A stretch of DNA of 41,363 nucleotides from positions 1 through 41,363 of the forward strand of contig JBFRWQ010000162.1 in NCBI GenBank assembly GCA_051439665.1, written 5' to 3'. Every line of letters starts with the position of its first letter. The stretch's first letter is position 1. Source of the stretch: Microcystaceae cyanobacterium (GTDB lineage: Bacteria; Cyanobacteriota; Cyanobacteriia; Cyanobacteriales; Microcystaceae). The translations under genes and the position numbers were made by a program. Shown in pieces: positions 5,434 to 39,160 of the stretch. The notes beneath the pieces were generated by a model. That model had not been told where the DNA came from, searched no databases, and worked only from the letters and a program-made list of their open reading frames with translations.

Positions 5434-7143
5434 TTAAAACAAGAAATACCGTTGCGCCATTGGTAATTCGGTGGCAGGATCACAGGTTAATAACTCTCCA
5501 TTTGCTCTAACTTCATAAGTTTCTGGGTTAACCTCAATGTGAGGTAAAAAATCATTACATTTCATGTCTGTTTTACTTAAGTTGCGGGTATTCTTGACGG
5601 CAACACAAGGCTTTTGTAAATCAATCTTTTTGGGAATCTCTTGTTGAATGGCAATTTGAGAGAGAAATGTCAAAGAAGTAGCTGCGATCGCACCCCCAAA
5701 GCTACCAAACATGGGACGCATATAGACAGGTTGGGGAGTGGGAATACTTGCATTTGCATCTCCCATTTGGGACCATGCAATCATCCCTCCTTTAATCACG
5801 ATCTCTGGTTTTACGCCAAAAAAGGCAGGTTTCCATAAGCATAAGTCGGCTAATTTTCCTTCTTCCACTGATCCGACATAATCAGCAATTCCGTGAGTAA
5901 TAGCAGGATTAATAGTATATTTAGCCACATAGCGCTTTGCTCGTTGATTATCGTTATCCCCTGTTTCCTCCGATAATTTACCCCGTTGTACCTTCATTTT
6001 ATGACCCGTTTGCCAAGTTCTTAAAATCACCTCTCCTACCCTTCCCATTGCTTGAGAATCAGACGCAATCATACTAAATGCCCCTAAATCATGTAGAATA
6101 TCCTCTGCTGCAATGGTTTCCCGTCGAATTCTTGACTCTGCAAACGCCACATCTTCAGGAATACTTTGATCTAAATGATGGCACACCATTAACATATCAA
6201 GGTGTTCTTCCAAGGTATTTAAAGTATAAGGACGAGTAGGGTTAGTAGAAGAGGGTAAAACATTAATTTCACCGCAAACCTTAATAATATCAGGTGCGTG
6301 TCCCCCACCTGCCCCTACAGTATGATAAGAATGAATTACACGGTTTTTGAAGGCTGCAATGGTATTCTCGACAAACCCTGCTTCATTCAATGTATCGGTA
6401 TGAATGGCCACTTGTATATCATACTTGTCTGCCACAGTTAAACAAGTATCAATGGTAGCAGGGGTTGTTCCCCAATCCTCATGCAATTTTAACCCCATTG
6501 CACCTGCTTTGACCTGTTCAATTAACCCATCAGGTTGACTTGCATTTCCTTTCCCTAAAAAGCCTAAATTGATGGGGAACGCATCAGCCGCTTGCAACAT
6601 ACGATAAATATTCCATTCTCCAGGGGTACAGGTGGTTGCATTGGTTCCCGTTGCGGGGCCGGTTCCCCCACCAATCATGGTAGTGATCCCTGATGCGATC
6701 GCAGTTTCAATCTGTTGGGGACAGATAAAATGAATATGGGAGTCTATCCCTCCTGCTGTCAGGATCATTCCTTCCCCTGCCACAGCTTCCGTTGCTGGTC
6801 CAATAATAATATCAATGTTATCTTGTATGTAGGGATTTCCTGCCTTGCCAATTTTGAAGATTTTGCCGTCTTTAATGCCAATATCCGCTTTAATAATGCC
6901 CCACCAATCTAAGATTAAAGCATTGGTAATAACCAGATCCACTGCCCCATCTTCACGGGAGATCGGAGACTGTCCCATGCCATCACGGATCACTTTACCC
7001 CCTCCGAATTTTACCTCATCTCCGTAGGTGGTTAGATCCCGTTCTACTTCAATCAGTAAGTCTGTGTCAGCTAAACGAAGGCGATCGCCTACAGTGGGAC
7101 CATAAGTTTCTGCGTAGGCACGACGATCCATAAAATAAGGCAT
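5434..7143 (-). CDS. ureC: Urease alpha subunit
   Basis: N-terminus [23 protein letters not shown]. Also [36 protein letters not shown] and a C-terminal MAQRYFLF. Length 569 aa. Confidence 0.95.
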
Positions 7144-7381
7144 TAGTTAGTCCTCTCTATTAGGGTGTAATGGAACGATACAGTTAAATATCAAGAGATT
7201 TATCAATTTTACTGTTATTGTAATCTATGATTAAGTTCAATAAATATTTAATTGATCAATTTGTTAAGATATTAGTACAATGACACTTAAGCTGTCTGTC
7301 TCCACAAAAGCAAATTTGTGGTTGGATAGCTAACAACGTATCGTTGGAAAAATACGATCTATTATTCATCTAAAATTACCC

Positions 7382-8803
7382 ATGACACAAGAGCAATTAT
7401 TAGGTTTCAATGAACATTGGCTGGTGCAAAGATTAGAGAGGGTCAACACAGACATTCTTAAGAAATTTGTGTCAAACTGGCAAGATCTTAAAAATATTAA
7501 TACTCAAAAAGAACTTATTTCAGAAGTTATTACTCGCTTAAAGCTACTAAGTAATGACTCAGAGTTTATTAATCAATTTAAGGATTTTTTGAGAGACTAT
7601 GTGTTAAGTGCAAAAGTCTCTGAGTATATTTTGAAAATTAATAACAAAGACGATATTATTAGATGGCTAAATAGTTTGACTCAGAAATCTGGAGAATTTT
7701 CAGGAAGAAAATACCACTTTTTTCTTCATAAATATATTTCTCTCAATCGTAAACAACTTGATGATGCAGAAACTTCTATTTATTATCCCACAGAATTGGC
7801 ATTATTGATGGCAAGATCCAAAAAGGAATCTTATTTTCCTGATGGACTGAAACAAATACCTTATCATAAGACTTCCGAGTTTGAAATCATTTTTAGAGAT
7901 GATATGGATTGGATTGAAGTGCGAGGCGATTTTCAGATTGTTAGGGACTTCATGAGTACAGCGACCGTATCTCTAGATAATCCTTTCAGTGAAACAAAAA
8001 GCATATTTATTACTTATCAAAAAAATAAAACACCTAAGAGCTATCTTGTTGAACCTGTTAAATTCCTCCATATTTCCACTTTGAAAGATGCTATTAAAGG
8101 TAGTTATTTATCAGCATCATCTCCTACTAATGGTTCTAAAACATCTCGAATTTCTTTGTCTTTTGATAAATTAATTGATAGTCAAGAAGAAACAGAGCCT
8201 AGTTTAAGAAACCTAATAGTTCCAACAATTCAAGATGCAGATAAACTAAAAATTGCTTTTCAATATAAGCAAAAAGAATATTCTTTCGGAATTACTAAAA
8301 GTGGCGGTTTAACTTTTTATAAATATACTCCTGAAGAAGTCATAACCTATATTTTGCAAACTATTAATAAGATAGTAGTAGATAATTTTCGGCAAAAAAA
8401 TATTAGTATTCCACCGCAAGTAACTAACAAGTTTAGTGATTTTCAATCTAGTCCAATTAATGCCCATTCTAAGGTCAATAATATCATCAATAATGATCAT
8501 AGAAATATACTCACAAAAATAAAGTCATATATTGAAGAAAAGTATTCAGGTAATGGCTTAATTGGTATTTCTGATTTAGCTGAATATTGTGATACCATAG
8601 AAGGAGAAATTTATGTCAATTTATTAGCCTTAAAAAAACAAGGGGAAATTGACATTATTATTAGATACTTTTGTCCTGAAACTCATCAAATTCCTAATGA
8701 TGAAGTTCCTTACTGCTCTGAATGTGATTATGAATACTCTGCAGATTATATAACAACACTTGTTTATGTTCAACCGCTTAAAGTTAATCAAGAAGTTAAG
8801 TAA
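7382..8803 (+). CDS. Hypothetical 473-aa protein with no recognisable catalytic motif. The C-terminal ~90 aa look like a winged helix plus a C-x3-H...C-x2-C zinc-ribbon-like element.
   Basis: Long uninterrupted ORF with Lys/Asn/Ile-rich composition and no P-loop. Its C-terminus reads GISDLAEYCDTIEGEIYVNLLALKKQGEI followed by CPETH...CSEC. Confidence 0.7.
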   Translation: MTQEQLLGFNEHWLVQRLERVNTDILKKFVSNWQDLKNINTQKELISEVITRLKLLSNDSEFINQFKDFLRDYVLSAKVSEYILKINNKDDIIRWLNSLTQKSGEFSGRKYHFFLHKYISLNRKQLDDAETSIYYPTELALLMARSKKESYFPDGLKQIPYHKTSEFEIIFRDDMDWIEVRGDFQIVRDFMSTATVSLDNPFSETKSIFITYQKNKTPKSYLVEPVKFLHISTLKDAIKGSYLSASSPTNGSKTSRISLSFDKLIDSQEETEPSLRNLIVPTIQDADKLKIAFQYKQKEYSFGITKSGGLTFYKYTPEEVITYILQTINKIVVDNFRQKNISIPPQVTNKFSDFQSSPINAHSKVNNIINNDHRNILTKIKSYIEEKYSGNGLIGISDLAEYCDTIEGEIYVNLLALKKQGEIDIIIRYFCPETHQIPNDEVPYCSECDYEYSADYITTLVYVQPLKVNQEVK

Positions 8804-8827
8804 CCATTAAGTGAGGAAAAATTAAAG

Positions 8828-9517
8828 GTGAATAAAAAACAATTAGCTTCTGCATTCCTTGATGATATTAGCAATTATATTGCCAAACTACAACAAATAG
8901 AATCAAGACAAAATTCACTAACTTGTGCTAACTGCTTTAAGAATGATAATAACTATGAAGCAGAAAAAGATATATTGTCTAGGATACTTACTCAAAACTT
9001 CCAAAACACTAAAGAAAAAGGTGATGCTTTAGAAAATTTGGTTAAATATCTATTTGAAAGAATTTCATTAGTCAGTAATGTTGAAATTACCAATAAAGAT
9101 ATTACATTGGGACAAACCGATATTCAATTATTACCAATCGATCATATATTATACGAAATATGGGGAATTAGAGATTGCCCCCCAATGTCTATTATAGGAG
9201 AATGTAAAAATTATCCTAAAGATCCTGTTGGTAGAGAAGAAATTGAAAAAATTTGTTGGCGAACTTGTAAAGGAGGATGCTTAAGTTTTTTCATTACATT
9301 TGACTTTACACAGCCAGCACTAGATGAAATTGCCTATTTTAATCGACATAAAAATGATTTATGTATAAAAGGAGAAGGTGCATTAATTGTTCCTATTACT
9401 ATATTTATGCTAGAAACAATTATTACAAATAATATTAATTTTTGTTATTTTATTCGTTGGGCAATTCTATACTCTAAAGATATGAATATTGCTAATTATA
9501 TTCAAAAATTTAACTAG
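8828..9517 (+). CDS. Mrr-like restriction endonuclease-fold (PD-(D/E)XK) protein
   Basis: GTG start 24 nt after the upstream stop, preceded by GAGGA. The ordered motif LENLV ... GQTDIQLL ... IIGECKNY ... VGREEIEKI ... FFITFDFT matches the E / D / ExK layout of the Mrr catalytic domain as I remember it. Confidence 0.6.
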   Translation: MNKKQLASAFLDDISNYIAKLQQIESRQNSLTCANCFKNDNNYEAEKDILSRILTQNFQNTKEKGDALENLVKYLFERISLVSNVEITNKDITLGQTDIQLLPIDHILYEIWGIRDCPPMSIIGECKNYPKDPVGREEIEKICWRTCKGGCLSFFITFDFTQPALDEIAYFNRHKNDLCIKGEGALIVPITIFMLETIITNNINFCYFIRWAILYSKDMNIANYIQKFN

Positions 9518-9656
9518 CGGGTCAGAAAATACTACTCAAGAGTCGTATTAATACGGCAACTAGAGCCAAAGAAATGAGTTAATCTAGTAAATAAGAAAAC
9601 AACCTATTCACTCCCTAAACTTAAAAGATGAACGAGTTAATAGGAAGGAGATCAAG

Positions 9657-9782
9657 ATGACAGAATTAACGCTAGGACTTCAATTAGTGACCATTATTAG
9701 CTTAAGTTGTACCATTTTAACCCCTATTCTTCTGTGGTCATTAACCTTTCCCATCAATCAACGGGTAAAAGTCAACTATTAA
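9657..9782 (+). CDS. 41-aa predicted single-pass membrane peptide (below the ORF-track cutoff)
   Basis: AGGAAGGAG Shine-Dalgarno 6 nt upstream of the ATG. The product is MTELTLGLQLVTIISLSCTILTPILLWSLTFPINQRVKVNY, with a hydrophobic core. A strong terminator follows. Confidence 0.5.
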   Translation: MTELTLGLQLVTIISLSCTILTPILLWSLTFPINQRVKVNY

Positions 9783-9803
9783 GCTAAATTAGACAGAAAA
9801 CGA

Positions 9804-9840
9804 GGCGGAAGCAAGTGCATGATAGTTTCCGCCTTTTTTG
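9804..9840 (+). terminator. Rho-independent terminator after the small ORF
   Basis: GGCGGAA ... TTCCGCC stem followed by TTTTTTG, with an A-tract upstream, so it may work in both directions. Confidence 0.7.
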
Positions 9841-9983
9841 CTTGTTTTAGCGTTATTTCAGTGAGCAGTAACAAGTTACTATGTTTTAAAGCGGAGATTC
9901 TTGCAGAAGTGATCATGGGTTGATAGAGTAAAATCAAAATTCTTTTGACAAAAGACCCTCTAACTGTCACATAGCCAATCATC

Positions 9984-10871
9984 ATGACTTCTCCTCTTGT
10001 GTCCATTATTATTCCTGTTCTCAATGATGTTGAAGGATTGAGACAATGCCTAAAAGCGCTACAATGTCAAACCCTATCGTCTGAACAGTATGAAATTATT
10101 GTGGTAGATAATGGTTCAAGTGAAGCGATTAAGCAATGTGTGGCAGAATTTGAGCAAACTCGCTATTTAACTCAGGAAATTCCTGGCTCTTATGCTTCTC
10201 GTAATGTGGGAATAGAAGCAGCCAAAGGGTCTATTTTAGCTTTCACAGATGCTGATTGTTTACCCGTATCCATCTGGCTAGAGAAAGGAATAGAGTGCTT
10301 AAAAAATACCCCTAATGCTGGCTTAGTTGCTGGTAATATTGAGCTTTTCCCCCTAGATCCCCAGAAACCCAATGGGGTTGAGTTATTCAGCATGATAACG
10401 GATTTATGTCAAGAAAAATATATCGAAAGATTGAATTTTGGTGCAACCGCTAATGTTTTCACCTATCGTAAAGTTTTTGATGAGGTAGGATTATTTAAGA
10501 CAACCCTTAAATCAGGGGGAGATATGGAATGGGGTAAACGGGTGCATAAGGCAGGATATAAGACCGTTTATTGTGCAGAAGCAGCGATTCGTCATCCAAC
10601 CCGATCAACATGGAAATCCATCAAAGCAAAAACCTTGCGAGTGATTGGTGGAGTTCATGATATGTATCCCCCTTATTCAGCGAGAGCTTTAGTGAATAAT
10701 ATTCGCAAAGATTGGCCAAAAGGAGAAGATATCAAGAATATCATACAAGATCCTCGGATCAAATCCAATCCAGATCGCCTTAAGGTCTTAATGGTGGTTT
10801 TAGGTGTTAAATGGTTACGTTCAAGTGAACAAGTACGCCTCTTTTTTGGCGGTAAATCTCAAAATCTTTAA
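9984..10871 (+). CDS. Family 2 glycosyltransferase
   Basis: VSIIIPVLND, VVDNGS and FTDADC are the GT-A/GT2 signature elements. Confidence 0.8.
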   Translation: MTSPLVSIIIPVLNDVEGLRQCLKALQCQTLSSEQYEIIVVDNGSSEAIKQCVAEFEQTRYLTQEIPGSYASRNVGIEAAKGSILAFTDADCLPVSIWLEKGIECLKNTPNAGLVAGNIELFPLDPQKPNGVELFSMITDLCQEKYIERLNFGATANVFTYRKVFDEVGLFKTTLKSGGDMEWGKRVHKAGYKTVYCAEAAIRHPTRSTWKSIKAKTLRVIGGVHDMYPPYSARALVNNIRKDWPKGEDIKNIIQDPRIKSNPDRLKVLMVVLGVKWLRSSEQVRLFFGGKSQNL

Positions 10872-10985
10872 GATAGGATCTCATATAAGTTTAAAAAATT
10901 GGCGTAATTTTCGTACCATCGATGTTAATCTACTGCTTACTGCCCACCGAAATGACATCAGTGAGCAAAGCTATGTCCTTACGTT

Positions 10986-13406
10986 TTAACGATGGGAATG
11001 TTCCTCTAATAAGGCTTTGGCACGGGGTTTATAGATGAGATAAAATAGCGCTTCGAGGTAACGTAAAATATCCTCTCGATTTTCTTTAGAGGCAAAATTC
11101 CAGAATCCATAAATCCGTGCTAGTGACAGAAGACGGGAGGTGTGAATCTTCCAAGTATAGGTACTATAAACCCGTTCGATTGCCTGATTAGAAATCTCTG
11201 TCCAATAGTTAGGATTATGTTCACATTTGGTCACAAATTCGAGAATTTTTGCTCCCGTTTCTGCGTAATTAGTTGGATTGATATAAAAGCCATTTACCTG
11301 ATCTTGGATAATTTCCAAGGGTCCCCCGAATTGGGTGGCAAAAGTAGGAAGTCCAGAGATCATTGCTTCAAGAATGGTTAAACCAAAGGCTTCAAATAAA
11401 GCGGGTTGAATAAAAATACCTTGATGATCAGCAATGACTCGATAAACAACCCCAGAATCACTTTTAGGAAGTCGTACCCCTAACCAGCGAATTTTACCAT
11501 GCAATTCATATTGATCGATTAAGCTATACATTTTTTCAATTTCTTCTTTTTCTTCTGCATCAGTGGTATCGCTGGTGGATAATTTACCTGCAATAAGAAT
11601 CAAATTACAATGCTCTTGTAGCTCAGAAGATTGACCATAACATTCCACTAAACCCGTTAGGTTTTTGATCCGATCTAAACGTGCCATCGAAAATAAGGGG
11701 CGCTTATTCAGGTCATCTAATTTACCATAAATTTGTGCAGGATCTTCTTTGGTAAATAGTAAGTCTGCAATGGCTTCACTCTTAGTAGGAATCCGATCTT
11801 CGTGACGAGTATAGGGAAAATAAACCGTTTCATTCACCCCAGGGGGAACAACATTAAATTTAGGAGAAAATAGATCAATGCCATGAACAACATGATATAA
11901 ATCTGGCATGGTAAAGTTCTCGTAAGATTCATATTGTCCCACACTATCAGGGCGACCAACAATTTCTTGATAGGTGCTGCTAATAATGCAGTTTGCTGCA
12001 TTCATGGCAATTAGATCTGCTGTAAATTGTAAAGAAAAATGATAGTTATTTTCCAAATCTTGCCAATACAGATTACTAAATAGATATTTGGATTTTTCTA
12101 AGGCATGAGCAATAATAAACTGGGTAACATCTAAGCGCCGAGAGAGTAAGAAAGCGACAAGATTGCCATCAGAATAGTTACCAATAATTAGATCTGGTCT
12201 TCCTTGTAATTCCGCTAATAGTTCTGTTTCGGCATCAACCACATAAGTCTCTAAATAAGGCCAAATTTCAAAGCGAGAGATCCAATTTTGAGTCAGATTG
12301 GGATTAAATTCTCGGAAGGGAACTCGTAAGATCCAAGCATTATCTGTGCCATAAACTTTTTCCAAGCGCTCATTACAGCGTGTCCCATCACTATTAGGAA
12401 TTAAACGGGAGAGAATAATCACTTTAGGTTCAATTCCTAATTCTTCTAAACCTGCAAGTCGAATATCTTCTTGTAATTGCTCTTCTAAACTTCTTGCTTG
12501 ATCTAAAACATAAACTACTTGTCCCCCTGTATCTGGCCGGCCTAACACTCCTTCTTGGCCAAACCAACCATGTACCGAGACTAAAACAATACGGAAAATC
12601 ATGGGAATACGAGAGAGAAAATTCTGCCATGATTGAGGATCAGGAGAATCAATTAACTCATCTAAAATATTTAAGGTTTCTTTGACCCTTCCTGCTGTAT
12701 TTCCCCATCCTGGTTCAAATCCCATTGCTTGTAGTTCATAACGAAATTCTTCATAGGGTTTATCATCAGGTAAATGGCTAACAAAACCAAGCGCTTCTTT
12801 GACTTGATCAGATAATTGCTGTTGATTATTAATGCGACCATTGATCAATAAAATAATGCCATTGTATTGATGAAGACTCAAGAATTTATAGAGGATATCT
12901 AACCCCAGATTAGGATCTTGAAAGAGCTTACTAGAGAGAAAACGATTTAAAAATTGTACCCCTTTACCGATATTTTTCGAGTCACGAATACTAGGGGAAT
13001 AATCATAGAAAGGTTTAAAGTCAATTTCAAACACATCTCCTTCTTCGGGATGGTAATGATTGACAAAGCGATCACGCACATCTAGTAATTGTTGAGGGGT
13101 TAAAGCATCAACACTGAGGTCTTCGTAAAGGCGATAATATTGATTTTTAGCAATTTTCGGTCGATAGACAATACATAAACTTTGTCCATCTAAAATAATT
13201 TCTTGAGTATAATAGATTAATCGACTCAGACGTGAGTGAAGATGAAACTCCTCGTTTTTTTGATAGTTTTTACAATAGTTTTCAAAAGCCGAAACAATGT
13301 CATTTCTCAGTAAATATGTATGCTCTGATTGACGGAGTTGATCGATAAATTGTAATAATTCAATTTTCTCATCTGAGTTGACAATTTGTTCAATCACTTG
13401 CTTCAT
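10986..13406 (-). CDS. susA: Sucrose synthase
   Basis: 806 aa. PDTGGQVVYVLDQ and a C-terminal GT-B glycosyltransferase domain (EAFGLTILEAM). The length and layout match cyanobacterial and plant SuS. Confidence 0.85.
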   Translation of the reverse strand: MKQVIEQIVNSDEKIELLQFIDQLRQSEHTYLLRNDIVSAFENYCKNYQKNEEFHLHSRLSRLIYYTQEIILDGQSLCIVYRPKIAKNQYYRLYEDLSVDALTPQQLLDVRDRFVNHYHPEEGDVFEIDFKPFYDYSPSIRDSKNIGKGVQFLNRFLSSKLFQDPNLGLDILYKFLSLHQYNGIILLINGRINNQQQLSDQVKEALGFVSHLPDDKPYEEFRYELQAMGFEPGWGNTAGRVKETLNILDELIDSPDPQSWQNFLSRIPMIFRIVLVSVHGWFGQEGVLGRPDTGGQVVYVLDQARSLEEQLQEDIRLAGLEELGIEPKVIILSRLIPNSDGTRCNERLEKVYGTDNAWILRVPFREFNPNLTQNWISRFEIWPYLETYVVDAETELLAELQGRPDLIIGNYSDGNLVAFLLSRRLDVTQFIIAHALEKSKYLFSNLYWQDLENNYHFSLQFTADLIAMNAANCIISSTYQEIVGRPDSVGQYESYENFTMPDLYHVVHGIDLFSPKFNVVPPGVNETVYFPYTRHEDRIPTKSEAIADLLFTKEDPAQIYGKLDDLNKRPLFSMARLDRIKNLTGLVECYGQSSELQEHCNLILIAGKLSTSDTTDAEEKEEIEKMYSLIDQYELHGKIRWLGVRLPKSDSGVVYRVIADHQGIFIQPALFEAFGLTILEAMISGLPTFATQFGGPLEIIQDQVNGFYINPTNYAETGAKILEFVTKCEHNPNYWTEISNQAIERVYSTYTWKIHTSRLLSLARIYGFWNFASKENREDILRYLEALFYLIYKPRAKALLEEHSHR

Positions 13407-13842
13407 GACAATTCTCCACTAAAATTAAGTAACAATTGCGACCCTAAGTAGTCAAATTAAAAGGCTATTGACCCCCAAACTGGTAAGAAGTTCAGTTAGG
13501 TGATTTTTGACCTAAGATATACCTACTTTTCTAATTATTTCTCCCCTTTATAAGGGTGGTTAGGGAGGAGCATAAGGGATCTTAACTGTCAGAAATCACC
13601 TTACTCTAAGACGAGAAATCAAGGTTGCACCCAGGCCAATTAGAGAGGTATTTTGGCTATCTTTGAGGTTAGACGAAAAATTATTGAGGATATCCATCCT
13701 TTAAAGTAACATTTTTTGGAGAATCAGCGCAACTGCTCATTTTTTTGAGATGAGCCATTAAATTATCCTTAAGATTTGGTAATTTTGAGAAGAATGACTA
13801 TGATAGGGATAAATCAACTCAAGGTTAAGCCTAATATCTATC

Positions 13843-14394
13843 ATGTCCAAGCTGATTAAACCGATTCCTAGTCTAGAAGAACAGCGTAGAGAACAAGAAA
13901 AACTTCATGATACCCTATTGTTGCTTGACCATCTTTTCAAACGGGAAGAAACCACAGCGAAGATGATCTTGGGGAATTTATATGATATCGCTACAGTTAA
14001 CCTGATTAATAATAAAGTTCCCCTGAAAATGGCGAGTCCTTTGTTAAAACTCTTTGCTACGACGGCTAAACCCCTTGCTTCTGTCGTTGCTGTTCGTGCA
14101 TTCCAAGCTTTGTGTCCTAAACTGATAGCTGATTATCTCTATTCTTTGGTAGAATTTAAGCCTCAAGACACAACTTCAATAGAAGTCCTAGAAATAGACT
14201 CCTTATCTCGTCCTGAAATGGAAGCAAAATTGCAGCAAGTTAAGCAATTACAGGGTAGAGTGAGGTTTTTAACGGGCAGTTTGGTGGCAACTCTAGCGCT
14301 CTTTGCAGGAAGCTCTTTATTTGTCGCTCATAGACTAGGAGTACAACCCCAAGACATTGTACAACCCACACAAACCGTCATCGATGATCGATAA
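13843..14394 (+). CDS. Hypothetical protein with a C-terminal transmembrane segment
   Basis: 183-aa ORF with a TM-like stretch LTGSLVATLALFAGSSLFVA. No recognised family. Confidence 0.5.
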   Translation: MSKLIKPIPSLEEQRREQEKLHDTLLLLDHLFKREETTAKMILGNLYDIATVNLINNKVPLKMASPLLKLFATTAKPLASVVAVRAFQALCPKLIADYLYSLVEFKPQDTTSIEVLEIDSLSRPEMEAKLQQVKQLQGRVRFLTGSLVATLALFAGSSLFVAHRLGVQPQDIVQPTQTVIDDR

Positions 14395-14735
14395 ATGACA
14401 TTAAGACTTACAGTCATCTTTGTCTGTTAATTTTAGCGATGAGCGCTATTTCTCCTACCTCCTCACAAACCATTTATATAAACCATCAGCACTAAGATTC
14501 AGAGATTTTAAGAATAGTTTAGTTTTTGATTCTTCTCTGAGAACTTTTGTTAATATGTCGCCATACTTTATCAAATTAGCCATTGCAAAGTAACCTCTTG
14601 ATTAAGATAGTAAACAATTATAGTCGTTTAAAATAAGTTTGAGACACCCAGAATGTAAGCATCTTGCTCACTATCACAACAACAAACGATGAGGTTTAAA
14701 ATCAGAAAAGAAACTTTAACCAGATATCACACAGA

Positions 14736-17297
14736 ATGCCTAACCTCTACTTTGACACTGAAAAAAACAATCGTAAATCTTTTGAACTCCCTGGCGCTAA
14801 ACCCCATTATAATCCTGATCGCCCTGGTCAAGTTAACCACATATTTCTGGATTTAAGCCTAGATATTCCTAATAAATCCTTTCAAGGCATCTGTCATATA
14901 ACCTTAACCCCTGTACGTCGAGGAATCACTCAATTAACCCTAGATGCAGTCAATCTCAACATCACCTCAGTGTTAATAGATGAGATCAGTCAACCCTTTG
15001 ACTACGATGGCGAAAAACTGGTTATTCAACTCTTAAAACCCACAACTGAGCAAACTTGCGTTCTTTCTATTGCTTATAACGTTTCTCATCCCCAACGGGG
15101 ACTATACTTTATCGCACCTGATGAACACTATCCTAACAAACCTACCCAGGTGTGGACTCAAGGGGAAGACGAAGACTCCCGCTTCTGGTTTCCTTGTTTT
15201 GACTATCCTGGCCAGTTAGCAACATCAGAAATTCGAGTAAAAGTCCCTAAACCTTACCTTGCTATCTCTAATGGCGAGTTAATAGCCACAGAAGATCAAG
15301 GAGAGGAAATTATCTATCACTGGTCACAAAAACAGGTACATCCTACCTATTTAATGACCTTAGCCGTGGGTGACTTTGCCGAAATCAAAGATAGTTGGAA
15401 CGACATTCCTGTCACCTATTATGTAGAAAAAGGACGAGAAGCAGATGGACAGCGTAGCATGGGTAAAACCCCTGACATGATAGCCTTTTTTAGCGAGAAA
15501 TTTGGTTATCCTTATCCTTACCCTAAATATGCTCAGGTGTGCGTGGATGACTTCATTTTTGGCGGAATGGAGAATACTTCTACTACTTTGTTAACCAATC
15601 GCTGTTTATTGGATGAACGGGCTACCATTGATAATATGCGGACAGAAAGCTTAGTCGCCCATGAATTAGCCCATCAGTGGTTTGGCGATTTGGTGGTAAT
15701 CAAACATTGGTCACACGCATGGATTAAAGAAGGAATGGCTTCTTATTCAGAGGTATTGTGGACTGAGAAAGAATATGGCAAGGATGATGCCGCTTATTAC
15801 CTCTTAGGAGAAGCAAGAAGCTATTTACAAGAAGATTCTAGTCGGTATCGTCGTCCTATTGTGACGAATGTTTACCGAGAAGCGATCGAATTATATGATC
15901 GTCATTTGTATGAAAAGGGCGCTTGTGTTTATCATATCATTCATACCATCTTAGGCAGTGAGTTATTTGATAAAGCGATTCATACTTTTGTCCAGGAGAA
16001 TGCCCATAAAACGGTTGAAACCATCGATTTATTACGAGCCATTGATCAAGCAACTGGATATAATCTTATGTTTATCTTTGATCAATATGTCTTTCGAGGT
16101 GGACATCCTGATTATAAGGTGGGATATAGTTGGGATGGTGATAGTAATCTCGCTAAATTAACCGTTACCCAAACCCAAGGCAAAGAGGATGAAAAAGCAT
16201 TATTTGATTTAAAAATTCCTATTGCATTTGGTTATGTTGATGGTGATGTCACTCAGAAAACCTTTACCTTGCGTATCTATGAATATGAGCAGAGTTTCTA
16301 TTTTCCCTTAGAGAAGAAACCTGATTTTATTAGCTTCGATGTGGGCAACAATTTCTTAAAAACCGTTGAATTAGAATACCCAATTGCTGAATTAAAGGCA
16401 CAATTAAAGCATGATCCCGATCCCATTGCCCGTATCTACGCAGGAAAAGCGCTGGCTAAAAAAGGCGGTTTAGAAGTAATTGAAGCGCTAAAAAGCAGTT
16501 TAACCAAAGATCCCTTTTGGGGAGTCCGTCTAGAGTCAGCCAAGCACCTTGCAACCATTAAATTAGATCAAGCAGGTGGCGCTTTAATAGAAGGATTGCA
16601 GGATAAAGACGCAAAAGTGCGTCGTGCAGTGATAGGGGGCTTAAGTAAGATTAAAACCCTGCAAAGTTATGAACACATCAAGCAGACTCTAGAAAATGGA
16701 GATCCCAGTTACACAGTAGAGTCAACTACAGCCCGTTGTTTAGGGAGTATGGTATCAGGTAATTTGAAAGAAAAAGAGTCAGAAGTAATTGAAATCTTGC
16801 AAAAAGTTTTAAAAGAACGTGCAGGATGGAATGAAGTGGTACGATCAGGTGCAATTGGTGGTTTAAGTCAGCTTAAGACTTCTCCCGTTGCAGTAGATGT
16901 CATTGCAGAATACACTAAATTAGGAACACCTCAACCTTTACGGTTAGCTGCTATCCGTGCATTAGGAAGTATTTCTACGGGACAAACTCCCGACAAATTA
17001 GAGGCAATTTTAGAACAATTAGAAGCTATTTCCCAAGAGAGTTTCTTCTTAACTCAAGTTGCCGTTTCTGGTGCATTGGGACAGATGGAAACAGCCAAAG
17101 CAGTCTCTATTCTACAAAGTTTAGCAGACCAAACCCCCGATGGCCGAGTGCGACGGAAGGCTGAGGAAGCAATGGGTAAAGTACGGAAGAAACTAGGATC
17201 TGATAAGGAGCTTAAGTCATTACGGGAGGATTTAGATCAACTGAAGCAAGAAAATCAGCAGTTAAAAAGTCGTTTAGCTAAGTTAGAAGCTAAGTAA
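14736..17297 (+). CDS. M1-family aminopeptidase (aminopeptidase N-like) with C-terminal HEAT repeats and a coiled-coil tail
   Basis: GGMEN exopeptidase motif, HELAHQWFGD...E zinc motif, C-terminal repeats (DPxxxVRxxAxxxLG) and a terminal heptad-like LKSLREDLDQLKQENQQLKSRLAKLEAK. Confidence 0.85.
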   Translation: MPNLYFDTEKNNRKSFELPGAKPHYNPDRPGQVNHIFLDLSLDIPNKSFQGICHITLTPVRRGITQLTLDAVNLNITSVLIDEISQPFDYDGEKLVIQLLKPTTEQTCVLSIAYNVSHPQRGLYFIAPDEHYPNKPTQVWTQGEDEDSRFWFPCFDYPGQLATSEIRVKVPKPYLAISNGELIATEDQGEEIIYHWSQKQVHPTYLMTLAVGDFAEIKDSWNDIPVTYYVEKGREADGQRSMGKTPDMIAFFSEKFGYPYPYPKYAQVCVDDFIFGGMENTSTTLLTNRCLLDERATIDNMRTESLVAHELAHQWFGDLVVIKHWSHAWIKEGMASYSEVLWTEKEYGKDDAAYYLLGEARSYLQEDSSRYRRPIVTNVYREAIELYDRHLYEKGACVYHIIHTILGSELFDKAIHTFVQENAHKTVETIDLLRAIDQATGYNLMFIFDQYVFRGGHPDYKVGYSWDGDSNLAKLTVTQTQGKEDEKALFDLKIPIAFGYVDGDVTQKTFTLRIYEYEQSFYFPLEKKPDFISFDVGNNFLKTVELEYPIAELKAQLKHDPDPIARIYAGKALAKKGGLEVIEALKSSLTKDPFWGVRLESAKHLATIKLDQAGGALIEGLQDKDAKVRRAVIGGLSKIKTLQSYEHIKQTLENGDPSYTVESTTARCLGSMVSGNLKEKESEVIEILQKVLKERAGWNEVVRSGAIGGLSQLKTSPVAVDVIAEYTKLGTPQPLRLAAIRALGSISTGQTPDKLEAILEQLEAISQESFFLTQVAVSGALGQMETAKAVSILQSLADQTPDGRVRRKAEEAMGKVRKKLGSDKELKSLREDLDQLKQENQQLKSRLAKLEAK

Positions 17298-17489
17298 CTT
17301 GATTTTAGGGTGGGAGCGCTTTCTCTCACCTATTAAGCGAGTGGTCCCAAACCAAATGCTACCATAGATGTACTAAGTTACACTAATCATAGTCATGGAT
17401 TTTCAAAAGGGACAAGTATGGAGATATAAAACAAGAGATTGGAAACAGTCTTGTTTAGTTTATATTGCAGAAGTAACAGAAATAGATAG

Positions 17490-18278
17490 CTACTTTATCC
17501 AGATAGGTTGAGGAGAAGTATCATATTTACGAAGAATTTCTTTCGCTACTTTTTTGCTTAAAATATCAGATTTATAATTTTTCATTATTTTACTTGTGGA
17601 CATCATTGATCTTGATAATAAGAGAGAAACAGCTTCCTTTTTTTGATCATTGTTCAAATGAATAACTTTATCTAATCTTAAAAAAGTTTTGGCAATTTGT
17701 TCCCAAATCATAATTTCTGACTCAGGTTCAATATCTCTTGAAAAATTATCAATATGATCTTTAAGATTATCATTAAATACATCTCTCAAAATATTAAAAA
17801 TTATTTCTATTCGTTGTTTTTGTTGTTGGGTTAAGTTGCTAGTTCCAATAGGTGAAGGAACTAAACGATCAAGGTTTACTAATATGGTAAATGAATCGTC
17901 ATAAGACTCTTTGAATATCAAATCATTTTTTTCTTCTTGTTGATTATTAATGACTATTATATTATGAACTTCTAAATTACACTTCTTGTTGATTTTTATA
18001 CAAATATCATAAATTACCTTTTTGGCAACTTTTATTGAAACAATGAAAAACTCTCTCCTGTGATTAACTCTATAAGAGTTTAATGTTTCATGAATTTGTT
18101 TTTCTGCTAAACTGCAATCAGCAACTTTACAAGCCAAAGCAACTGTAAAAGGTTCAGGAACACCCGTTGTAAATAATTCCTTCCCTCGAATATTAGGTTC
18201 TCTGGTTGTCATACCAATTTTCACAACATTATGCCCAAATGATTCATTTTGCAATAAATAAATGTAACCTTCCTTCAT
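17490..18278 (-). CDS. T5orf172 / MUG113 (GIY-YIG superfamily-like) domain protein with an uncharacterised C-terminal helical region
   Basis: N-terminus GYIYLLQNESFGHNVVKIGMTTREPNIRGKEL...PEPF...HETLNSYRVNHRREFF matches the T5orf172 pattern. AAGGAG Shine-Dalgarno before the ATG. Very AT-rich. Confidence 0.65.
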   Translation of the reverse strand: MKEGYIYLLQNESFGHNVVKIGMTTREPNIRGKELFTTGVPEPFTVALACKVADCSLAEKQIHETLNSYRVNHRREFFIVSIKVAKKVIYDICIKINKKCNLEVHNIIVINNQQEEKNDLIFKESYDDSFTILVNLDRLVPSPIGTSNLTQQQKQRIEIIFNILRDVFNDNLKDHIDNFSRDIEPESEIMIWEQIAKTFLRLDKVIHLNNDQKKEAVSLLLSRSMMSTSKIMKNYKSDILSKKVAKEILRKYDTSPQPIWIK

Positions 18279-18358
18279 TTTTTGCTCCTTAGTATGTTAC
18301 ATTATCAGAAAAGCTACCTCTTATTATAGTCTATTAGTTCTTATTTTTGCTAAATGCT

Positions 18359-18640
18359 ATGATTCAATCATTTAAACATAAAGGATTACGTAAACTGTTT
18401 GAAGATTATAATCGTAAAGGAGTCCAACCAGAATATGCATAAAAGCTGTTAGATATTCTAGATCGCTTAAATGCGGCATCTGTCATCCAAGATATGAGTT
18501 ATCCTAGTTCTAGGCTACATCAATTAAAAGGCGATCGCAAAAATGAATGGTCAGTCAGTGTCTCAGGAAATTGGCGAGTGAACTTTAAATTTGTGGATGG
18601 AGATGCTTATGATGTTAACTATGAAGACTATCATGCTTGA
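18359..18640 (+). pseudogene. higB: HigB-type (killer protein, RelE/ParE superfamily) toxin gene interrupted by an in-frame TAA
   Basis: The translation is MIQSFKHKGLRKLFEDYNRKGVQPEYA*KLLDILDRLNAA...LHQLKGDRKNEWSVSVSGNWRVNFKF..VNYEDYHA. The stop lies at 18440-18442. The rest of the frame is intact and family-typical. Confidence 0.8.
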
Positions 18641-36811: not shown

Positions 36812-39160
36812 ATGCCAATTGGACAAATTGAAGGACTTCTCAATCCACAAGGTAAGATAGCTAGTTCTAGTTGTCTGTTCTTTAATGACGAGCAAAATCA
36901 AAAATATATTGATAGTAAAAAAATGACAGGGGAATTAAAAAAAATACTCAATTTTCTTTCTCAAGAAAAACGACTGTATGTAAAATTTGACTTAGATCCT
37001 GAGAATGAGGTGAGGAATATAAAGTTATATAAGGCATTGGGGGTTATTACCTTATATAAAGTAAAAAAAGATAAATTAGATAAACTAGACAAACAAGAAT
37101 CCCCCATTAAGATATATATTGAATGGGATAACCAAAAAGATATTTTTCCTATTTTTCTTCCGTTTTTTCATTATTATTATCATGATTTAAGCAACACAGA
37201 TATTGTGGTTTTTATACCCTGTTATATTCCAGAATCTAAGAAATATGAGGCAATTGACATTCAAAAATGTGAACATTATTTTTGTAAAGCGAATCAGGAA
37301 TTGATAAAAACATCTATTAGTAGTTCGCTTTCTGAAGTTTCTTTATTCTCACTGCGCTCATATATACATACATTTGAAGAAGAAGAAAAAGAAGCGATTG
37401 ACTTGATACTATCAGCAACAAAGAAAATGTCCATTGAACATCAAAAGCAAATTATACAAGAAATTCAAAAAGACAAAACAAGCTTGTTACTACACTCATT
37501 TCCACTAAGGGAAATTTTACAGCAATTTAAAGAAAACTATGTTAAATTTTTAAATGAACATTTAATAGTAGATAACAAGAATAAAGAAGAATTAGAGAAT
37601 AAGAAAGATTTGATACGAGAACTACATTTGTATCTACAAAAAATCAATGAAGCAGAAAGAAAAGAATTCTGGCAGCAAATTGATTATTTAAAAACAACGT
37701 TAAGATATAAATTTACTTTTTGGAATACTACACCAATTGAATATAAAATAGAAATCGTAAAAAGACGATTTACACAATTTTTTGTTCTTGTTGAGCAGTT
37801 TTCAACGTCAACTTATCCCTATGAAAAATATATCAATCAAGAATGGCACAAATTATATAAATTTGACGATTTCGATCAAAAATTAATTTTAGAATGGTTA
37901 CGGAAAGAATCAGGAAACAAAGATTATTCTGAGGCTAGAATGCTTTCAGCAAGGGGGGCTGAAAAATTAGTCATCAACTATTATGAAAGCTTAGGTGATC
38001 AAGTTGAAGATGTTTCAATTCAGCAAGTTAAATTAACAACAAGTCAAGATTGGAAGTTAGGAGATATTCGTATTAATTCTAAGGAATTACTTGATGTGAA
38101 AAATGCACGAAAGGATAGAAATTCAAAAGTTTATTCAGAATTCTGCATTCCAAAATTTAAACAAGATGAGAAGAATCAACGAGATGTAAAAATTATTGCT
38201 GTAAGTTCTCCCTATCTTCAATTGTCATTTATCAAGGGTACTGATACTCCTCCGTCTAATTGGTATATTTCAAGCCCAATCATATTAGGAGAATTTGATG
38301 ATAGCCAACTTATAAAGTTAAAAGATTTTTTTAACAGTGATCTTATTCAGTTAGATATGTCGAGAGGCTTGGAATTAGATCGAAACACTTATTTACCGCC
38401 TTGGATATTTGATTACAGTGATAAATTTTATTCTGAACAAATCAACATTAGTGAACAATTTAGTGAGTTATGGTATGATGAAATACCTGAATATGAAGAT
38501 ATAGAACTAATGAAGAATAGTTTCCTTGATTCATGCTTATCTCTCTTTGTTATTAGTCGTAGAGATTTACCAGAATCATGGCAATTAAATTTACCTGATT
38601 GGAAGTGTAAATTTATTGAACAATTAAATAGTCGCCCTAATGAACGTCTGACTTTACCTTATCTATATCTTTCATTATTAAAACACTTTTTAATAATGCT
38701 ATCTGAACCAGAAAGTGATTATCAACCACAAGCCTATAGAGAAATTCTTGACTTGTCTAGTGGTCATCTAGATAAAAAGCCGTTAAAAATTTACGATCCA
38801 TTAAGTATGATTGAGGATTTATGTAAGTCATTACAAATCTTATGGCAACACCGTCACAAATATGACTTAACGGAATTTAGGATATTTAAGTTTAGTGGTA
38901 GAGGTTTGCTACGAGGTAAACGAAATCAATCCCAACAAAAATATACGACTATTATGGCATTCTGTGGAGGCGATGTATATAAAGATAATATATATAACAG
39001 TAAAAACTATCAAGGAAAATGTGGATTTACTCCTTTAGTGATTGGACAAAACGATACTTGTGAAACCTGTCAACTATTAATTTGTCCTGAATGTGGTGAT
39101 TGTCTCTGTCAAAGAACAAAAATAGACAAAATAAAAAACTTGCAGTACTATCCCACCTAA
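36812..39160 (+). CDS. Hypothetical 782-aa protein with a central PD-(D/E)XK-like nuclease motif and a C-terminal Cys cluster
   Basis: AAGAGG Shine-Dalgarno before the ATG. The central segment reads ARGAEKLVINYYESLG...DWKLGDIRINSKELLDVKNARKD (E / D / DxK, nt ~37950-38115). The C-terminus reads CETCQLLICPECGDCLC (nt 39059-39112). Very AT-rich, with no P-loop. Confidence 0.7.
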   Translation: MPIGQIEGLLNPQGKIASSSCLFFNDEQNQKYIDSKKMTGELKKILNFLSQEKRLYVKFDLDPENEVRNIKLYKALGVITLYKVKKDKLDKLDKQESPIKIYIEWDNQKDIFPIFLPFFHYYYHDLSNTDIVVFIPCYIPESKKYEAIDIQKCEHYFCKANQELIKTSISSSLSEVSLFSLRSYIHTFEEEEKEAIDLILSATKKMSIEHQKQIIQEIQKDKTSLLLHSFPLREILQQFKENYVKFLNEHLIVDNKNKEELENKKDLIRELHLYLQKINEAERKEFWQQIDYLKTTLRYKFTFWNTTPIEYKIEIVKRRFTQFFVLVEQFSTSTYPYEKYINQEWHKLYKFDDFDQKLILEWLRKESGNKDYSEARMLSARGAEKLVINYYESLGDQVEDVSIQQVKLTTSQDWKLGDIRINSKELLDVKNARKDRNSKVYSEFCIPKFKQDEKNQRDVKIIAVSSPYLQLSFIKGTDTPPSNWYISSPIILGEFDDSQLIKLKDFFNSDLIQLDMSRGLELDRNTYLPPWIFDYSDKFYSEQINISEQFSELWYDEIPEYEDIELMKNSFLDSCLSLFVISRRDLPESWQLNLPDWKCKFIEQLNSRPNERLTLPYLYLSLLKHFLIMLSEPESDYQPQAYREILDLSSGHLDKKPLKIYDPLSMIEDLCKSLQILWQHRHKYDLTEFRIFKFSGRGLLRGKRNQSQQKYTTIMAFCGGDVYKDNIYNSKNYQGKCGFTPLVIGQNDTCETCQLLICPECGDCLCQRTKIDKIKNLQYYPT

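Follow-up and report, generated by a model that had tools for sequence, protein, structure and literature searches.

A candidate nuclease-based conflict cassette of three modules beside ureC in a Microcystaceae cyanobacterium

We describe here a pair of AT-rich genes that lies next to the urease gene ureC on a contig of a Microcystaceae cyanobacterium (JBFRWQ010000162.1, assembly GCA_051439665.1), of which we analysed a stretch of 41,363 nucleotides, referred to below as the window. Judged by its homologues elsewhere, the pair is a three-gene unit, A-B-C, with modules of about 335, 100 and 225 amino acids (aa), in which the first open reading frame of the window (ORF1) is a fusion of A and B and the second (ORF2) is C. 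Our reading, which draws on sequence comparison and predicted structure, is that the cassette may be an undescribed, horizontally acquired module of nuclease-based conflict whose three parts form one operon, a proposal that we regard as about evenly balanced between right and wrong. On the same grounds, it is probably either an anti-phage or an addiction module.

Results

Cassette architecture

A sequence-only reading of the window had picked out the cassette as two co-directional genes 24 nt apart, a 473-aa ORFan and a Mrr-like nuclease whose GTG start follows the motif GAGGA. The gene coordinates and the gap were confirmed: ORF1 (473 aa, ATG start) occupies 7382-8803 and ORF2 (229 aa, GTG start) 8828-9517, both on the + strand. 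The GTG start is also supported, because the M-[NK]-K N termini of ORF2 homologues align with the GTG-initiated N terminus. ORF1 turned out not to be an ORFan, with homologues first found in 15 clusters and then, when 1.84 billion representative proteins were searched exhaustively with a profile, in 38 representatives, all of them members of the A family or fragments. Free-standing homologues of its larger part are about 330-360 aa long and end at around ORF1 residue 335, and its C-terminal ~100 residues have homologues among separate proteins of 99-109 aa, whose genes lie between A and C at the other loci. The two-gene description is incomplete: ORF1 fuses two genes that almost all related loci keep apart. 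The parts map to the window as follows.

7382-8401, + strand: A module, ORF1 residues 1-340 (free-standing homologues end here; AlphaFold2 model)
8402-8494, + strand: low-complexity linker, ORF1 residues 341-371, joining A to B in fused versions only
8495-8803, + strand: B module, ORF1 residues 372-473 and stop codon, a winged helix-turn-helix followed by a zinc knuckle (homology, Foldseek)
8672-8725, + strand: zinc knuckle C431-x3-H435-x9-C445-x2-C448 (conserved ligands; metal binding predicted)
8813-8817, + strand: GAGGA, a Shine-Dalgarno-like element read in the sequence, 10 nt 5' of the ORF2 GTG
8828-9517, + strand: C module, an N-terminal helical region (residues 1-60) and then the predicted PD-(D/E)xK core (AlphaFold2, conserved residues)
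9008-9400, + strand: predicted PD-(D/E)xK core, approximately C residues 61-191 (AlphaFold2 element order)

Hidden Markov models (HMMs) of A, B and C, run over the fetched loci, recovered A, B and C in this order at about 20 distinct loci, including every locus where the available sequence suffices, with genes 4-35 nt apart or joined by overlapping stop and start codons. Homologues of ORF1 and ORF2 thus co-occur, in a fixed order, well beyond the window. The large pentapeptide-repeat genes that neighbour the cassette at three loci were considered as a fourth component and ruled out, since they are not orthologous.

The linker that joins A to B in ORF1 is predicted to be disordered, with a predicted local distance difference test score (pLDDT) below 50 for residues 342-369, and it has no counterpart in unfused loci. 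We found a second A-B fusion, P0044, a protein of 471 aa whose gene adjoins a C gene and whose linker is unrelated to that of the window. On a neighbour-joining tree of A, P0044 falls on a separate branch from the window protein, the nearest relatives of which (P0002 and P0003) are unfused, and the two fusions appear on this comparison to be independent. Two apparently independent fusions classically indicate that the two proteins work in physical contact.

Several copies of the cassette are damaged. In Mojavia pulchra JT2-VF2 and in a cyanobacterial metagenome-assembled genome (MAG), the A gene is interrupted by a stop codon or frameshift while B and C are intact (L015 8637-9628 and L018 8656-9658); these may be pseudogenes or assembly errors. 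Crocosphaera sp. MO_167.B6 retains an isolated 156-bp fragment (L026 4001-4156) that matches the ExK/CWR region of ORF2 at 83% identity and has no A, no B and no other part of C alongside, and is a relic of a lost cassette. Such pseudogenised and relic copies fit dispensable genes with fast turnover.

Properties of the three modules

The AlphaFold2 model of C (pLDDT 89, predicted template-modelling score 0.89) places helix 61-77, strands 82-87, 96-103 and 121-127, helix 136-149 and strand 151-157 in the alpha-beta-beta-beta-alpha-beta order of a PD-(D/E)xK core. The ordered E ... D ... ExK pattern that had been noticed in ORF2 by eye is real: E69, D98 (in GQxD) and E125-C-K127 (in GECKN) are invariant in 20 distinct sequences, the divergent copy from Persephonella included, and lie on the expected helix and strands of the model. 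CWR143-145 and NFCYF204-208 are likewise invariant in this set. On motif and model, C is a probable PD-(D/E)xK nuclease.

The C-terminal part of ORF1 had been read as a winged helix followed by a zinc-ribbon-like element, and Foldseek, the AlphaFold2 model and the conserved Cys and His residues all agree with a winged helix and a zinc-binding type of element. In the model, helices at 396-403 and 407-419 precede a strand at 423-430. Foldseek matched B to MarR, ArsR/SmtB and TFE-alpha winged helices with probabilities of 0.94-0.99 and E-values all above 0.04, and in searches of the whole ORF1 model against PDB and BFVD the winged helix alone was matched convincingly. The residues C431, H435, C445 and C448 are kept in 19/19 cyanobacterial-type B sequences; the first Cys is missing from the Persephonella copy. 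We therefore describe B, with the fold taken from the model, as a winged helix with four conserved putative metal ligands. Taken alone, B shares with archaeal TFE-alpha the domain order of winged helix and then zinc element, but it shows no sequence-level relationship to TFE-alpha, MarR or ArsR/SmtB; its ligands are spaced C-x3-H...C-x2-C and not as two CxxC knuckles, and it is encoded in a nuclease operon and not with transcription machinery.

The closest relative of the window's B (79% nucleotide identity, with a shared 'SGNGLIG') is part of the protein P0015 (L005 256-1273), a fusion with an NNH2 domain (Pfam E = 1e-44). The C gene at this locus is truncated after about 40 residues and there is no A gene, and the locus is rearranged or decaying. 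Domains of the NNH type have been described at the N termini of bacterial NACHT anti-phage proteins (bioRxiv 10.1101/2022.07.19.500537). Separately, the B-sized protein A0A482MJ09 (BFVD; 111 aa) of Nodularia phage vB_NspS-kac68v162 matched the B model with a template-modelling (TM) score of 0.56 on the target, a root-mean-square deviation of 3.9 Å and a probability of 1.00; judged from the models, this may be a winged-helix protein of the ordinary phage kind, or it may mimic B.

The A module is predicted to consist of an N-terminal four-helix part and two beta-rich parts, with pLDDT mostly 80-95, and carries conserved acidic and basic motifs: TxEFEIIFR...VRGD (164-183), EET (269-271) and ITKSGGLxF...PEEVxTYIL (304-325). 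It had no match in Pfam, NCBIfam, PADLOC, PHROGs, PDB sequences or PDB folds, in keeping with the earlier remark that ORF1 shows no recognised P-loop or other catalytic signature; no NTPase family was matched in A, B or C. Sequence-profile searches of PDB with the A and C alignments returned nothing relevant. By hhalign, A showed no relationship to NNH2 (probability 0.5%) or to C, and neither did its halves to each other.

Candidate matches for the fold of A were rejected. Foldseek searches of PDB and BFVD gave long alignments of the ORF1 model with CodY and CRP, an unnamed viral protein (A5Y2C5; E = 1e-4, TM 0.16) and a 'recombination-associated protein' (TM 0.25-0.30), all of them too poor to assign a fold. 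A CARF match in P0044 (E = 0.007) is absent from other A homologues and clashes with the all-beta prediction in that region.

The sequence-only reading had been unable to map the pair to a named system, and this held. Scans of both proteins and their relatives with Pfam, NCBIfam, PADLOC and PHROGs gave nothing above threshold for A-B-C, and PADLOC-DB v2.0.0 specifically had no match for ORF1, ORF2, P0015, the C protein of locus L028 or the A, B and C of Persephonella. Isolated PADLOC matches in P0044 and other A homologues (CARF, Cas8b, Cas5b and JetA, each in one member) were rejected as noise. Database names of the cassette homologues are all 'hypothetical protein', and we found no description of a matching named system in the literature.

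Composition of the locus

The cassette is clearly more AT-rich than its surroundings, with a guanine-plus-cytosine (GC) content of 29.1% against a window mean of 37.2% (standard deviation 3.1%, windows of equal size), and only 0.13% of same-size windows are as low. It is the lowest-GC 2.1-kb stretch of the 41 kb, equalled solely by an AT-rich block near 37 kb. GC at third codon positions is 16-21% in the cassette genes and 26-35% in the neighbours, and the combined content of Lys, Asn, Ile, Tyr and Phe is 36-39% against 24-28%, so the bias seen by eye, including the enrichment of Lys, Asn and Ile, is borne out by counts. Two flanking genes had also been named correctly: ureC has a Urease_alpha match in the syntenic locus L032, and the gene on the other side is a family 2 glycosyltransferase (GT2; Pfam E = 2e-20).

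One compositional argument for foreign origin failed. The cassette does lack the octamer HIP1 (GCGATCGC), as had been pointed out, but there are 15 sites in the 41 kb, 0.77 would be expected per 2.1 kb, and the probability of finding none is 0.46. The argument therefore carries no weight, and the HIP1-free gap is in fact 11 kb long (7089-18530) and spans the native-looking GT2 gene and the next large gene (earlier read as sucrose synthase). In this genome, HIP1 sites are spaced too unevenly to reveal islands of 2 kb.

Upstream of ORF1 lies one further feature of interest.

7144-7381, + strand: AT-rich intergenic region (29% GC), presumed promoter region, within the block that is 100% identical to L032 (from GC content)

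Promoter and terminator scans of the cassette region remained at chance level, as did the single promoter-like match upstream of the cassette (7252-7281).

Past ORF2, by 140 nt, we observed a 41-aa hydrophobic ORF (9657-9782, + strand; MTELTLGLQLVTIISLSCTILTPILLWSLTFPINQRVKVNY) with an AGGAG ribosome-binding site and no Pfam match; GC around it is host-like (36%), and it is followed at 9795-9845 by a terminator-like GGCGGAA...TTCCGCC hairpin with a T-run. The second block that is as AT-rich as the cassette (~29% GC) lies at 36812-39160 (+ strand) and encodes a 782-aa ORF without a Pfam match, which is possibly another foreign gene.

Distribution and genomic context

C-type genes occur in 14 of 185,579 species-representative genomes. 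The carriers, nearly all of them cyanobacteria, are Nostoc, Mojavia, Vacuolonema, Rivularia, Pleurocapsa, Pseudanabaena and cyanobacterial MAGs, together with a 7-kb contig binned as Acetobacteraceae; Crocosphaera has the 156-bp relic only. A divergent but complete A-B-C copy is carried by Persephonella marina EX-H1 within a Mu-like prophage (L029 7229-12087; also L030, L031, L033 and L034), where the cassette HMMs matched A with E = 1e-36, B with E ~ 1e-4 and C with E = 1e-38. This copy lies downstream of a CI-like repressor and four small genes, is co-directional with the repressor, and is upstream of baseplate genes (baseplate-V-like); this set is also found in two IMG/VR viral contigs. Among the four small genes, one has a weak DUF6414 match and one encodes a predicted membrane protein.

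In all host genomes whose flanks could be used for comparison, the GC content of the cassette is 6-22 points lower than that of the adjoining sequence (39.6% against 62.0% at L025). Its foreign appearance is thus general, and since it is AT-rich in every host, AT-richness is a property of the family and not a peculiarity of the window.

In the related loci, the surroundings include mobile elements and defence-type genes: a recombinase trio, a prophage, and restriction-modification (RM) and toxin-antitoxin (TA) neighbours. In Nostoc sp. DedQUE12b, a trio of tyrosine recombinases immediately precedes the cassette; Mojavia has two HsdM-like genes directly upstream of it, and Rivularia a type I RM system about 3 kb away. 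Other neighbours are HicA, BrnT/BrnA, Uma2, XisI, HicB-like and DUF2442 genes. The methyltransferases present in 2/11 neighbourhoods belong to separate type I systems, and at no locus is a methyltransferase encoded within the A-B-C unit.

Structural RNA genes or fragments were seen near three cassettes. In Nostoc, a tRNA-like 3' fragment (T-arm and acceptor; L003 8488-8647) lies directly upstream of A, after the recombinase trio; it was not called by ARAGORN and is not derived from a transfer-messenger RNA (tmRNA). At other loci, a tmRNA gene lies 3.7 kb (L007 5877-6266) and two tRNA-Glu genes lie 4.2 kb (L001 5421-5795) upstream of the cassette. These positions suggest integration hot spots.

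Recent exchange at the ureC site

The only syntenic contig that we found, JBFRWB010000116.1 (L032; GCA_051439375.1), also carries the cassette. Positions 8054-11280 of L032 correspond to 5435-8661 of the window, at which point the L032 contig ends inside ORF1. Within this alignment, ureC is about 89% identical up to 6949, the position of the last mismatch, and everything beyond it is identical.

6950-8661: block of 1,712 bp with 100% identity to JBFRWB010000116.1

The block covers the first ~200 bp of ureC, the upstream spacer and part of ORF1, and under uniform divergence an identical run of this length has a probability of ~1e-90. Gene order to the left of ureC differs, with MinCDE in L032 and an RTX-like repeat protein in the window. 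We conclude that the block is either the product of a very recent exchange by homologous recombination or a chimera of co-assembled strains.

We found no empty ureC-GT2 site; a metagenome scan with the GT2 protein gave 46% identity as its closest match. Around the window cassette, there were no convincing direct or inverted repeats and no convincing target-site duplication. On sequence grounds, we regard the window cassette as horizontally acquired.

Antisense to ureC, at 6702-6988 (+ strand), the window also matches Rfam RF02514, '5_ureB_sRNA' (105 bits, E = 1e-26), and this match ends next to the start of the identity block at 6950. We take this family to be a Helicobacter cis-antisense RNA, and the match most likely reflects conserved coding sequence of the urease large subunit and not a cyanobacterial small RNA.

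Discussion

A possible conflict module

If the cassette is a nuclease-based conflict module, A-B-C would be expressed as one operon and C would be the effector, acting as a metal-dependent PD-(D/E)xK (Mrr-like) DNase. B would bind nucleic acid while held in a physical complex with A, as its fusion to A in the window and, apparently independently, in one other lineage implies. A would be the sensor or regulatory subunit, holding C in check, or without direction, until a signal from an invading element appears. Because the unit contains no methyltransferase, A-B-C might act on foreign DNA in the manner of Type IV restriction, or else as an abortive-infection nuclease. The cassette itself would move as a passenger of integrative elements and prophages, and also through homologous recombination in the genes beside it.

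The gene content and order, the fusion, the conserved residues, the distribution, the composition and the genomic context are observed; nuclease activity, an A-B-C complex, a sensing role of A and a defence phenotype are what we infer. For a conflict module, we count the fixed order and tight spacing of A-B-C, the two A-B fusions, the invariant E69, D98 and ExK on a confident model, the restriction-type character of the weak matches of C (MspJI as best fold match, Mrr_cat as the most frequent Pfam match, and the aligned segment of E. coli Mrr), the extremely patchy distribution of the cassette, its low GC in every host, its mobile, RM and TA neighbours, the pseudogenised and relic copies and the identity block at ureC; for an immune role, we count the NNH2-B fusion, given the place of NNH domains in NACHT anti-phage proteins. 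As for the earlier proposal of a defence-type module, the co-occurrence of the genes, their foreign composition and their mobile, RM and TA context agree with it, but a defence role is read here from context and a TA or addiction role would fit the same data.

Several observations weigh against a nuclease-based conflict module. The window's C has no Pfam match, and Mrr_cat, the most frequent weak Pfam match, appeared below threshold in 2 of 18 C members (best E = 0.012). In Foldseek, the best PDB fold match of C, MspJI, was not significant (E = 0.043, TM 0.33), and it was followed by the weak matches EndoMS (E = 0.34) and, lower in the list, Avs3. An hhalign comparison with E. coli Mrr gave a probability of 1.6% over 17 columns around ExK. 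In the neighbourhoods, RM genes lay within 8 kb in 2 of 11 surveyed loci, a raw count and not an enrichment, and housekeeping genes are frequent there too. A tblastn search of phage and plasmid record collections, with 50,697 phage records, found no cassette. A sensor role for A is a guess, since A has no recognisable domain, and a TA system would account equally well for an operon in which a DNA-binding protein precedes a toxic enzyme.

Because this family-specific statistical support is weak, we take C to be a probable PD-(D/E)xK nuclease and not an established member of Mrr_cat (PF04471), the gathering score of which was not reached. What stands of the earlier assignment to Mrr-type nucleases is the motif order, the secondary structure and the start of the helix that follows ExK.

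The alternative that the cassette is a TA or addiction system seems to us unlikely, but it overlaps with a conflict module, as the border between TA and abortive infection is not sharp. C would be a DNase toxin, and A-B an antitoxin and autorepressor acting through the winged helix of B, which together would stabilise islands and prophages. The compact operon has the layout of type II and three-component TA systems, with a DNA-binding component upstream, a potentially toxic enzyme last and short gaps or overlapping stop and start codons; TA genes (HicA, BrnT/BrnA, HicB-like and DUF2442) are frequent neighbours in several genomes, and the cassette is carried both on an integrative element and on a prophage. 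However, A, at ~335 aa, is far larger than usual antitoxins and is unrelated to known antitoxins or chaperones, and no TA family was matched in Pfam, NCBIfam or PADLOC. Upstream of A, we found no conserved palindromic operator in 16 loci. Cassettes are single-copy and very rare, unlike typical cyanobacterial TA families, and the B-NNH2 fusion points to architectures of the immune type.

It is quite improbable, in our judgement, that A-B-C is a set of genes for the life cycle of a phage or mobile element (DNA processing, degradation of host DNA, or exclusion), with the chromosomal copies being remnants. The divergent copy between regulatory and baseplate genes of a Mu-like prophage, the two IMG/VR contigs, the Nostoc copy after a recombinase trio and a tRNA-like fragment, and the interrupted and relic copies would all suit such a role. 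Yet most cyanobacterial copies, that of the window included, have no phage structural or recombinase genes in reach, and the window cassette has neither terminal repeats nor a target-site duplication. The family is absent from the phage records searched, and an IMG/VR scan with cyanobacterial-type patterns gave no match. In the prophage itself, the site beside the repressor is typical of accessory genes expressed in lysogeny and not of core genes. Such an arrangement is that of rexAB in lambda and of sieB, which are repressor-adjacent accessory genes expressed in lysogeny.

A host function, with A-B as a one-component sensor and transcription factor and C as a housekeeping nuclease for repair or processing, would suit the regulator-like layout of fused A-B (a large N-terminal domain and a C-terminal winged helix) and the weak, long Foldseek alignments to CodY and CRP-type regulators, but it is highly improbable for genes that are so rarely found, are compositionally foreign in all hosts, have pseudogenised copies and links to mobile elements, and occupy different chromosomal sites in different genomes. 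Both the element and the host roles are made less likely by the patchy distribution, the foreign composition and the lack of element genes near most copies.

Comparison with known systems

A nuclease-based conflict module of the A-B-C kind would recall several known systems. C has the order helix-E, strand-D and strand-ExK of the Type IV enzymes Mrr and MspJI, the second of which was its best (non-significant) fold match. The hhalign alignment places ECKNY..VGREE of C on QAKRW..VGRPE of E. coli Mrr, so that both have a 'VGRxE' helix start after the ExK lysine, and all A-B-C loci share with Type IV systems the lack of a methyltransferase. Mrr and MspJI, however, carry their DNA-reading domain on the same polypeptide, whereas C has only a helical N terminus of about 60 residues and the partners A and B, and it scores below the Pfam threshold for Mrr_cat. 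Type IV systems also have a domain for reading modified DNA (SRA, the winged helix of Mrr, DUF3578 and others) and cleave in dependence on the modification; in the cassette, B is a predicted winged helix and A has no recognisable fold.

Likeness to STAND systems (Avs/AVAST, NACHT) with REase/Mrr-like or NNH N-terminal domains lies in the predicted small PD-(D/E)xK effector domain, with Avs3 among the weak fold matches of C, and in the fusion of a B relative to NNH2. In contrast to these systems, A, B and C lack an NTPase module, a P-loop and a repeat sensor and matched no STAND or AAA family, and the three are separate small proteins where a STAND system is one giant protein.

The general plan, then, is familiar: islands and prophages carry a small PD-(D/E)xK effector together with partners for DNA binding and sensing. 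What appears to be new, by comparison with the families searched, is the combination of a ~335-aa protein family with a winged-helix/zinc-knuckle adaptor and with neither an ATPase nor a methylase.

Implications

A more specific form of the conflict-module proposal, which we hold tentatively and with somewhat less than even confidence, is that A-B-C is a new family of anti-phage immunity, borne by prophages and genomic islands, in which an A of novel fold, together with B, senses infection and licenses a minimal Mrr-like nuclease. In such a family, the A-B and NNH2-B fusions might show B to be a modular adaptor through which different sensor or signalling domains are coupled to DNA, a suggestion we put slightly below an even chance. 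Its scope would be limited, as the family is very rare, its function is deduced from context, and many similar candidate nuclease cassettes are already known.

If A-B-C is an immune system, it would be a compact three-part architecture without ATPase or methylase, its largest part being free of detectable relatives and of structural counterparts, and would add a new sensor or regulator domain to nuclease-based immunity. Such a system would, in addition, be a rare one that comes chiefly from cyanobacteria, where few defence systems have been tested. Finally, the mosaic at ureC could exemplify how a defence-type island moves between diverged cyanobacterial genomes through recombination in a housekeeping gene.

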